A stretch of DNA of 64,000 nucleotides from Escherichia coli. GTDB lineage: Bacteria > Pseudomonadota > Gammaproteobacteria > Enterobacterales > Enterobacteriaceae. This document shows, piece after piece, positions 33,117 to 34,313 of the stretch. The position numbers and the translations under genes were made by a program. The notes below the pieces were generated by a model, which saw only the letters and a program-made list of their open reading frames with translations, did not search any database and was not told where the DNA came from. Location of the stretch: NCBI RefSeq assembly GCF_016026235.1, contig NZ_CP065613.1; one strand, 5' to 3'. Position 1 is the first letter of the stretch, and each line of letters opens with the position of its first letter.

Positions 33117-34313
33117 ATGGCTCAAGTTATTAATGAAATGGATGTTCCGTCCCATTCGTTTGTTTTTCATGGTACAGGTGAGAGATATTTTCTTATTTGT
33201 GTGGTGAATGTGTTGTTAACGATTATAACGCTAGGTATCTATTTACCATGGGCATTAATGAAATGTAAGCGTTATCTCTATGCTAATATGGAAGTTAACG
33301 GACAACGATTTTCTTATGGAATTACCGGTGGGAATGTTTTTTTTAGTTGTCTTGTTTTTGTTTTTTTCTATTTCGCAATCTTAATGACAGTGTCAGCAGA
33401 TATGCCACTTGTTGGCTGTGTTTTGACTTTGTTACTGTTGGTTTTGCTTATATTTATGGCAGCAAAAGGACTGCGTTATCAGGCCTTGATGACCAGTCTC
33501 AACGGCGTAAGATTTAGTTTTAATTGCTCTATGAAAGGGTTCTGGTGGGTAACCTTTTTCTTGCCGATTTTAATGGCCATTGGGATGGGGACTGTTTTCT
33601 TTATCTCGACAAAGATGCTACATGCCAATAGTTCAAGTAGTGTTATTATATCTGTGGTTCTGATGGCAATAGTTGGTATTGTTTCCATTGGTATTTTTAA
33701 TGGTACTTTATATAGTCTGGTAATGGGTTTTCTCTGGAGCAATACCAGTTTCGGTATACATCGTTTCAAGGTGAAATTAGATACTACGTATTGTATAAAA
33801 TATGCCATTCTCGCATTTTTAGCTTTATTACCTTTTCTCGCTGTTGCTGGTTATATTATCTTCGATTAAATATTAAATGCGTATGATAGTTCTGTGTATG
33901 CAAATGATGATATTGAGAATTTACAGCAATTTATGGAAATGCAACGTAAAATGATAATCGCGCAGTTAATCTATTATTTTGGGATTGCTGTTAGCACCAG
34001 TTATTTAACGGTGTCGTTGCGAAATCATTTTATGAGCAACCTGTCACTGAATGATGGGCGTATTCGTTTTCGCTCAACTTTAACATACCACGGTATGCTT
34101 TATCGCATGTGTGCGTTGGTGGTGATATCCGGGATTACGGGCGGTCTGGCTTATCCACTGCTGAAAATATGGATGATTGACTGGCAGGCAAAAAATACGT
34201 ATTTGCTGGGCGATTTGGATGACCTTCCTTTAATCAATAAAGAAGAACAACCAGATAAAGGCTTCTTAGCCAGTATTTCACGGGGAATTATGCCTTCTTT
34301 ACCATTTCTGTAA
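33117..34313 (+). pseudogene. yjgN: DUF898 inner-membrane protein YjgN, interrupted by an in-frame TAA at 33867-33869
   Basis: Track ORFs 33090..33869 and 33894..34313 are in the same frame, separated only by TAA plus 8 codons; both parts are hydrophobic; from MAQVINEM the joined length is 398 codons, matching my memory of intact YjgN. Confidence 0.65.

Follow-up and report, generated by a model that had tools for sequence, protein, structure and literature searches.

An in-frame TAA at codon 251 interrupts yjgN in an Escherichia coli genome: a very probable pseudogene of a gene that is often lost

YjgN of E. coli K-12 is a protein of 398 amino acids that is encoded between yjgM and valS and belongs to the 'YjgN family protein' group (DUF898, PF05987). 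It consists of a single Pfam DUF898 domain that spans residues 13-369 (E=1.5e-45, 156.2 bits). No function was assigned to YjgN in the literature that was searched, which has only incidental mentions of it, and neither a PDB relative nor an NCBIfam model of the protein was found. A preprint names yjgN as one of the genes whose presence varies from one ST131 subclade to another (doi 10.64898/2025.12.08.692488). The deep yjgN alleles have pN/pS values of 0.12-0.18 (Nei-Gojobori), which indicates that intact yjgN is protein-coding and under constraint and that the single reading frame would be its functional form.

Several inactivated alleles of yjgN exist in E. coli, one of which has a nonsense mutation at codon 144 (W144*, TGG>TGA). 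This allele was found at six of the loci compared (L006, L011, L012, L014, L015 and L021), and its exact 61-mer haplotype is present in 237 of 4546 complete genomes (~5%), including O26 and O103 strains. RefSeq labels it 'internal stop' in ETEC1716, which is the pseudogene among the six extra alleles that were fetched for the gene tree described below, and one W144* allele has an additional L253*. Other lesions include an IS1 insertion with a deletion in the yjgN of one strain (L007) and a 2-bp frameshift in that of another (L013), and 797 of 5426 complete genomes (~15%) have no match to yjgN. Loss of the gene is common and evidently tolerated; the several independent knock-outs, together with the absence from ~15% of the genomes, show that many lineages of E. 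coli can do without yjgN. The repeated loss is also a modest clue for those who seek the function of the DUF898 family.

The allele described here lies in a 64-kb stretch of E. coli DNA that is called the window. The features that matter are the following, with positions counted from the first letter of the window:

33117..34313, plus strand: yjgN, a DUF898 inner-membrane protein gene and very probably a pseudogene (K-12 colinearity, yjgM and valS as neighbours, Pfam)
33867..33869, plus strand: ochre TAA at codon 251 (CAA in the intact allele; 61-mer counts)
33117..33866, plus strand: N-terminal fragment of 250 codons, the expected truncated product (DUF898 profile match, hydropathy peaks up to 231-249)
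33894..34313, plus strand: C-terminal remnant ORF with a GTG start, 139 codons plus stop (DUF898 profile match)
34360-35601, minus strand: transposase ORF of an IS4-family element (annotated relatives)
51073-51157: tRNA-Leu(CAA), the only tRNA in the window

An earlier note on this DNA, made from the letters alone, had described two ORFs in one frame that are split by a TAA and eight sense codons, and both the ORF list and the sequence confirm this description. The list has a plus-strand ORF at 33090..33869 (259 aa) and another at 33894..34313 (139 aa, start GTG); the distance between their starts (33894-33090 = 804 = 268x3) places them in the same frame, and the gap from the TAA to the GTG at 33894 is 24 bases. 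The stop is in frame inside yjgN (atcttcgatTAAatattaaatgcgtatgatagttctGTGtat), and the letters around it run GGTTATATTATCTTCGAT, TAA, ATATTAAATGCGTATGATAGTTCT and then GTG TAT. Translation of 33117-34313 yields 399 codons that are interrupted by one internal stop, and it reproduces the 398-codon read-through protein beginning with MAQVINEM that the note had proposed; the frame runs from ATG 33117 to the stop at 34311-34313 and stays open for 147 codons downstream of the TAA. One small correction concerns the first ORF: RefSeq starts the gene at ATG 33117 in the sister genomes, and ATG 33090 is merely an in-frame extension upstream.

The comparison with K-12 identifies both the gene and the mutation. 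All 1197 nucleotides of the window yjgN align to K-12 yjgN without gaps, with 23 substitutions (98.1% nucleotide identity), and the two genes have the same start, stop and codon length. Given this gapless colinearity at 98% identity, the stop is a real interruption of a gene and chance is not at issue. The gene order argF(argI)-rraB-yjgM-yjgN-valS is common to the window, K-12 and the sister genomes. The domain match, the orthology and the synteny all place the window gene in the YjgN/DUF898 family. One of the 23 substitutions, a C>T transition at 33867, changes CAA (Gln) at codon 251 to TAA (Q251*); 8 of the other 22 are non-synonymous. The earlier note had suspected a nonsense mutation and had expected other genomes to have a sense codon there, with CAA as one of its examples. 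CAA was indeed found at codon 251 in all 12 non-TAA alleles that were read, namely K-12 and 11 others, which supports the nonsense mutation. The uninterrupted state is the ancestral, constrained one, as judged from the large majority of intact alleles, from the low pN/pS values given above and from the single DUF898 domain that extends across the break.

The stop splits this one DUF898 domain in two because the N-terminal fragment matches profile positions 2-201 of 336 (128.5 bits) and the C-terminal fragment matches positions 227-318 (32.9 bits); both scores are above the Pfam gathering cut-off for DUF898, which is 28 bits. Kyte-Doolittle hydropathy peaks occur at about residues 25-43, 68-121, 145-163, 176-194 and 231-249, and the broad stretch at 68-121 apparently contains two helices. 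The stop falls one residue past the predicted helix at 231-249, where the hydrophilic stretch QILNAYDSSVYANDDIENLQQFMEMQRKM begins. Beyond that stretch there are more hydrophobic segments, one of which peaks at 331-349, and then the C-terminal tail. About 37% of YjgN is lost by the stop, corresponding to the last third of the DUF898 domain.

Taken together, it is very probable that the yjgN of the window is a pseudogene that was created by one point mutation in a dispensable gene. The C>T change at 33867 turned the Gln251 codon into a stop, and translation from ATG 33117 would end after residue 250. The resulting membrane protein would lack the loop that follows the 231-249 helix, the last hydrophobic segments and the C-terminal tail. 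The 139-codon ORF downstream would be the orphaned rest of yjgN rather than a gene of its own, and the mutation was presumably tolerated because yjgN is dispensable. That YjgN function is lost and that the downstream part goes untranslated are both predictions from the sequence. The truncated protein of 250 amino acids could keep some activity, and ribosomes could to some extent re-initiate at GTG 33894 or at an ATG further on. By eye, no Shine-Dalgarno-like purine run is present 5-12 nt upstream of GTG 33894 (AATGCGTATGATAGTTCT) or of ATG 33933, and so efficient independent translation of the 139-codon remnant is probably not to be expected. Apart from the stop, yjgN is intact in all of the TAA alleles, which would suggest either that the inactivation is recent or that the remnant is still partly constrained.

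The TAA allele is rare. A 61-mer centred on codon 251 with TAA is present as an exact match in three of 4537 complete RefSeq E. coli genomes, those of FDAARGOS_943, 2013C-3342 and 2015C-4498, and its CAA version is exact in 3708 of the 4612 complete E. coli genomes with a match, the rest having 1-3 mismatches anywhere within the 61 bases. W144* and Q251* are alike in being nonsense inactivations of the same gene, and they are independent; W144* is at a different codon, uses a different stop codon, is in a different clade and is the commoner of the two. In all three complete genomes with the TAA, RefSeq/PGAP labels yjgN as a YjgN family protein, pseudogene, 'internal stop'. Therefore, this very allele is already known as a pseudogene from sister genomes, and it is an ordinary nonsense pseudogene.

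Some annotations treat the locus as two genes. The earlier note had taken the same TAA with two separately annotated genes in reference genomes as something that would speak against a nonsense mutation. Formally such annotations exist, for automated GenBank calls, including those of GCA_900449985.1, have separate products of 250 and 139 amino acids; RefSeq/PGAP, however, has one pseudogene. The two-gene calls only reflect the gene callers and are a product of automated gene calling rather than biological evidence, and so they do not refute the nonsense mutation. A correct annotation would show a single yjgN pseudogene here in place of two hypothetical membrane proteins.

One alternative is that the mutation produced a functional gene fission, in which separate translation of the two ORFs gives two halves that come together as a working split YjgN. 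Membrane proteins that are broken in a hydrophilic loop are sometimes able to reassemble, and the break in yjgN is in such a loop between hydrophobic segments. The absence of further disabling mutations from the TAA alleles and the two genes reported by gene callers also agree with a fission. However, neither GTG 33894 nor the next ATG is preceded by a Shine-Dalgarno motif, the split is rare (three of 4537 complete genomes), and the lesions of other lineages (W144*, the IS1 insertion and the frameshift) are at unrelated positions, which argues for plain dispensability. We therefore consider a fission to be very improbable. The clade of the window has only two yjgN substitutions, both of them non-synonymous, and these are too few for a conclusion on either fission or relaxed selection.

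A second alternative, which the earlier note had also raised, is an error of sequencing or assembly, in which case the strain would actually have CAA and an intact yjgN. The difference is indeed only one base, and the source, with a contig of 4.56 Mb, looks like a culture-collection genome assembled from long reads. Errors of long-read sequencing, however, are chiefly indels rather than substitutions, and the same TAA is present in assemblies that were made independently. The nearest of 5426 complete RefSeq E. coli genomes is that of FDAARGOS_943, which is ~100% identical over 22.7 kb around the locus. It has the Q251* TAA and is essentially of the same lineage, but it is a distinct assembly that differs from the window by two SNPs in yjgN and by the absence of the adjacent IS described below. 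The TAA recurs in the GenBank assemblies GCA_901482675.2, GCA_009868655.1 and GCA_902825655.1, and also in more divergent strains, for the 2013C-3342 and 2015C-4498 alleles have it on another haplotype that differs from the window at nine sites. Gene callers reported the exact truncated product (NCBI STM01658.1, 'inner membrane protein [Escherichia coli]') on 13 contigs, and its listed sources include NCBI and Logan. One contig that encodes it, UGFA01000002.1 (GCA_900449985.1), is 100% identical to the window over 30117-36869 (6753 bp). Since independent assemblies share the allele, an error is rejected as very improbable. Q251* is a real heritable allele of low frequency in E. coli, as far as the assemblies show.

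The weakest alternative, read-through of the stop by programmed recoding or by a suppressor tRNA so that full-length YjgN is restored, would fit the 147 intact open codons downstream, but it is hardly credible because the TAA is missing from >99.9% of the orthologues, which is the opposite of a programmed recoding site, because UAA is the stop codon with the lowest read-through in E. coli, and because no suppressor tRNA was found within the 64-kb window, its sole tRNA being the ordinary tRNA-Leu(CAA).

In a neighbour-joining tree of 19 yjgN alleles the TAA alleles were not recovered as one group but appear in three places: the window with FDAARGOS_943 and L008, 2013C-3342 with 2015C-4498, and L009 with L010. 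Between one group and another there are 7-13 substitutions. Only two sites distinguish the 2013C/2015C allele from the intact allele of the O8:H8 strain 16F5M1D1, and the TAA is one of them. However, sites 611-968 are otherwise identical in the alleles of the window clade, in the 2013C/2015C alleles and in the intact O8:H8 allele, so that a recombination tract of up to 368 bp would leave no trace. Therefore, these results would imply that the TAA, which is on at least three haplotype backgrounds, either arose by recurrent mutation or was spread by short-tract recombination. Several independent origins, if there were any, would be a sign of a mutational hotspot or of selection for the loss of YjgN. 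That yjgN is repeatedly targeted for inactivation in E. coli, perhaps adaptively, is a tentative idea and a doubtful one. In the intact alleles the C that mutated closes a GATC site (TTCGATCAAATA; e.g. positions 975-978 of L017), and the C>T change abolishes this Dam site, so that 33864-33867 of the window reads GATT.

The region between yjgN and valS in the window contains an IS4-family element of ~1.3 kb (34341-35632). It is 99.4-99.5% identical to copies annotated as 'IS4-like element ISEc60 family transposase', and its ends are IS10-like (CTGAGGGATCCCC...GGGGATTCCTCAG). The sequence GGAGCATGCTCC is present at both junctions of the element, suggesting a target duplication of ~9-10 bp. The insertion site is the loop of a GC-rich hairpin (GGCCGGAGCATGCTCCGGCC), which in FDAARGOS_943 scores as a bidirectional terminator for the convergent genes and is no longer detected in the window. 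The genome of FDAARGOS_943 has the TAA but no IS element at this site, which would indicate that the insertion is younger than the TAA. The lineage is rich in IS elements; the FDAARGOS_943 genome has 38 places elsewhere that match the ISEc60-like element.

The wider neighbourhood contains another damaged gene. A yjgL-like 'DNA-binding protein' gene is located upstream of argF/argI on the plus strand at ~29155-30721, coordinates that are approximate, being carried over from L016 and L005 by means of an offset. It is called as two ORFs in GCA_900449985.1 and is annotated as a frameshifted pseudogene in FDAARGOS_943, so that a second pseudogene is less than 4 kb from yjgN. Local decay of the kind seen in Shigella or EIEC was considered and rejected, since the core stretch from fbp to ahr in FDAARGOS_943 has only two pseudogenes, yjgN and the yjgL-like gene. 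The decay near yjgN is not heavy, and the remaining pseudogenes of that genome region are in an island past tRNA-Leu. After tRNA-Leu(CAA), FDAARGOS_943 has an integrase, IS1 copies, a frameshifted 'RNA-directed DNA polymerase' and a 'phage polarity suppression protein', and this stretch looks like a P4-like island that integrated at that tRNA.
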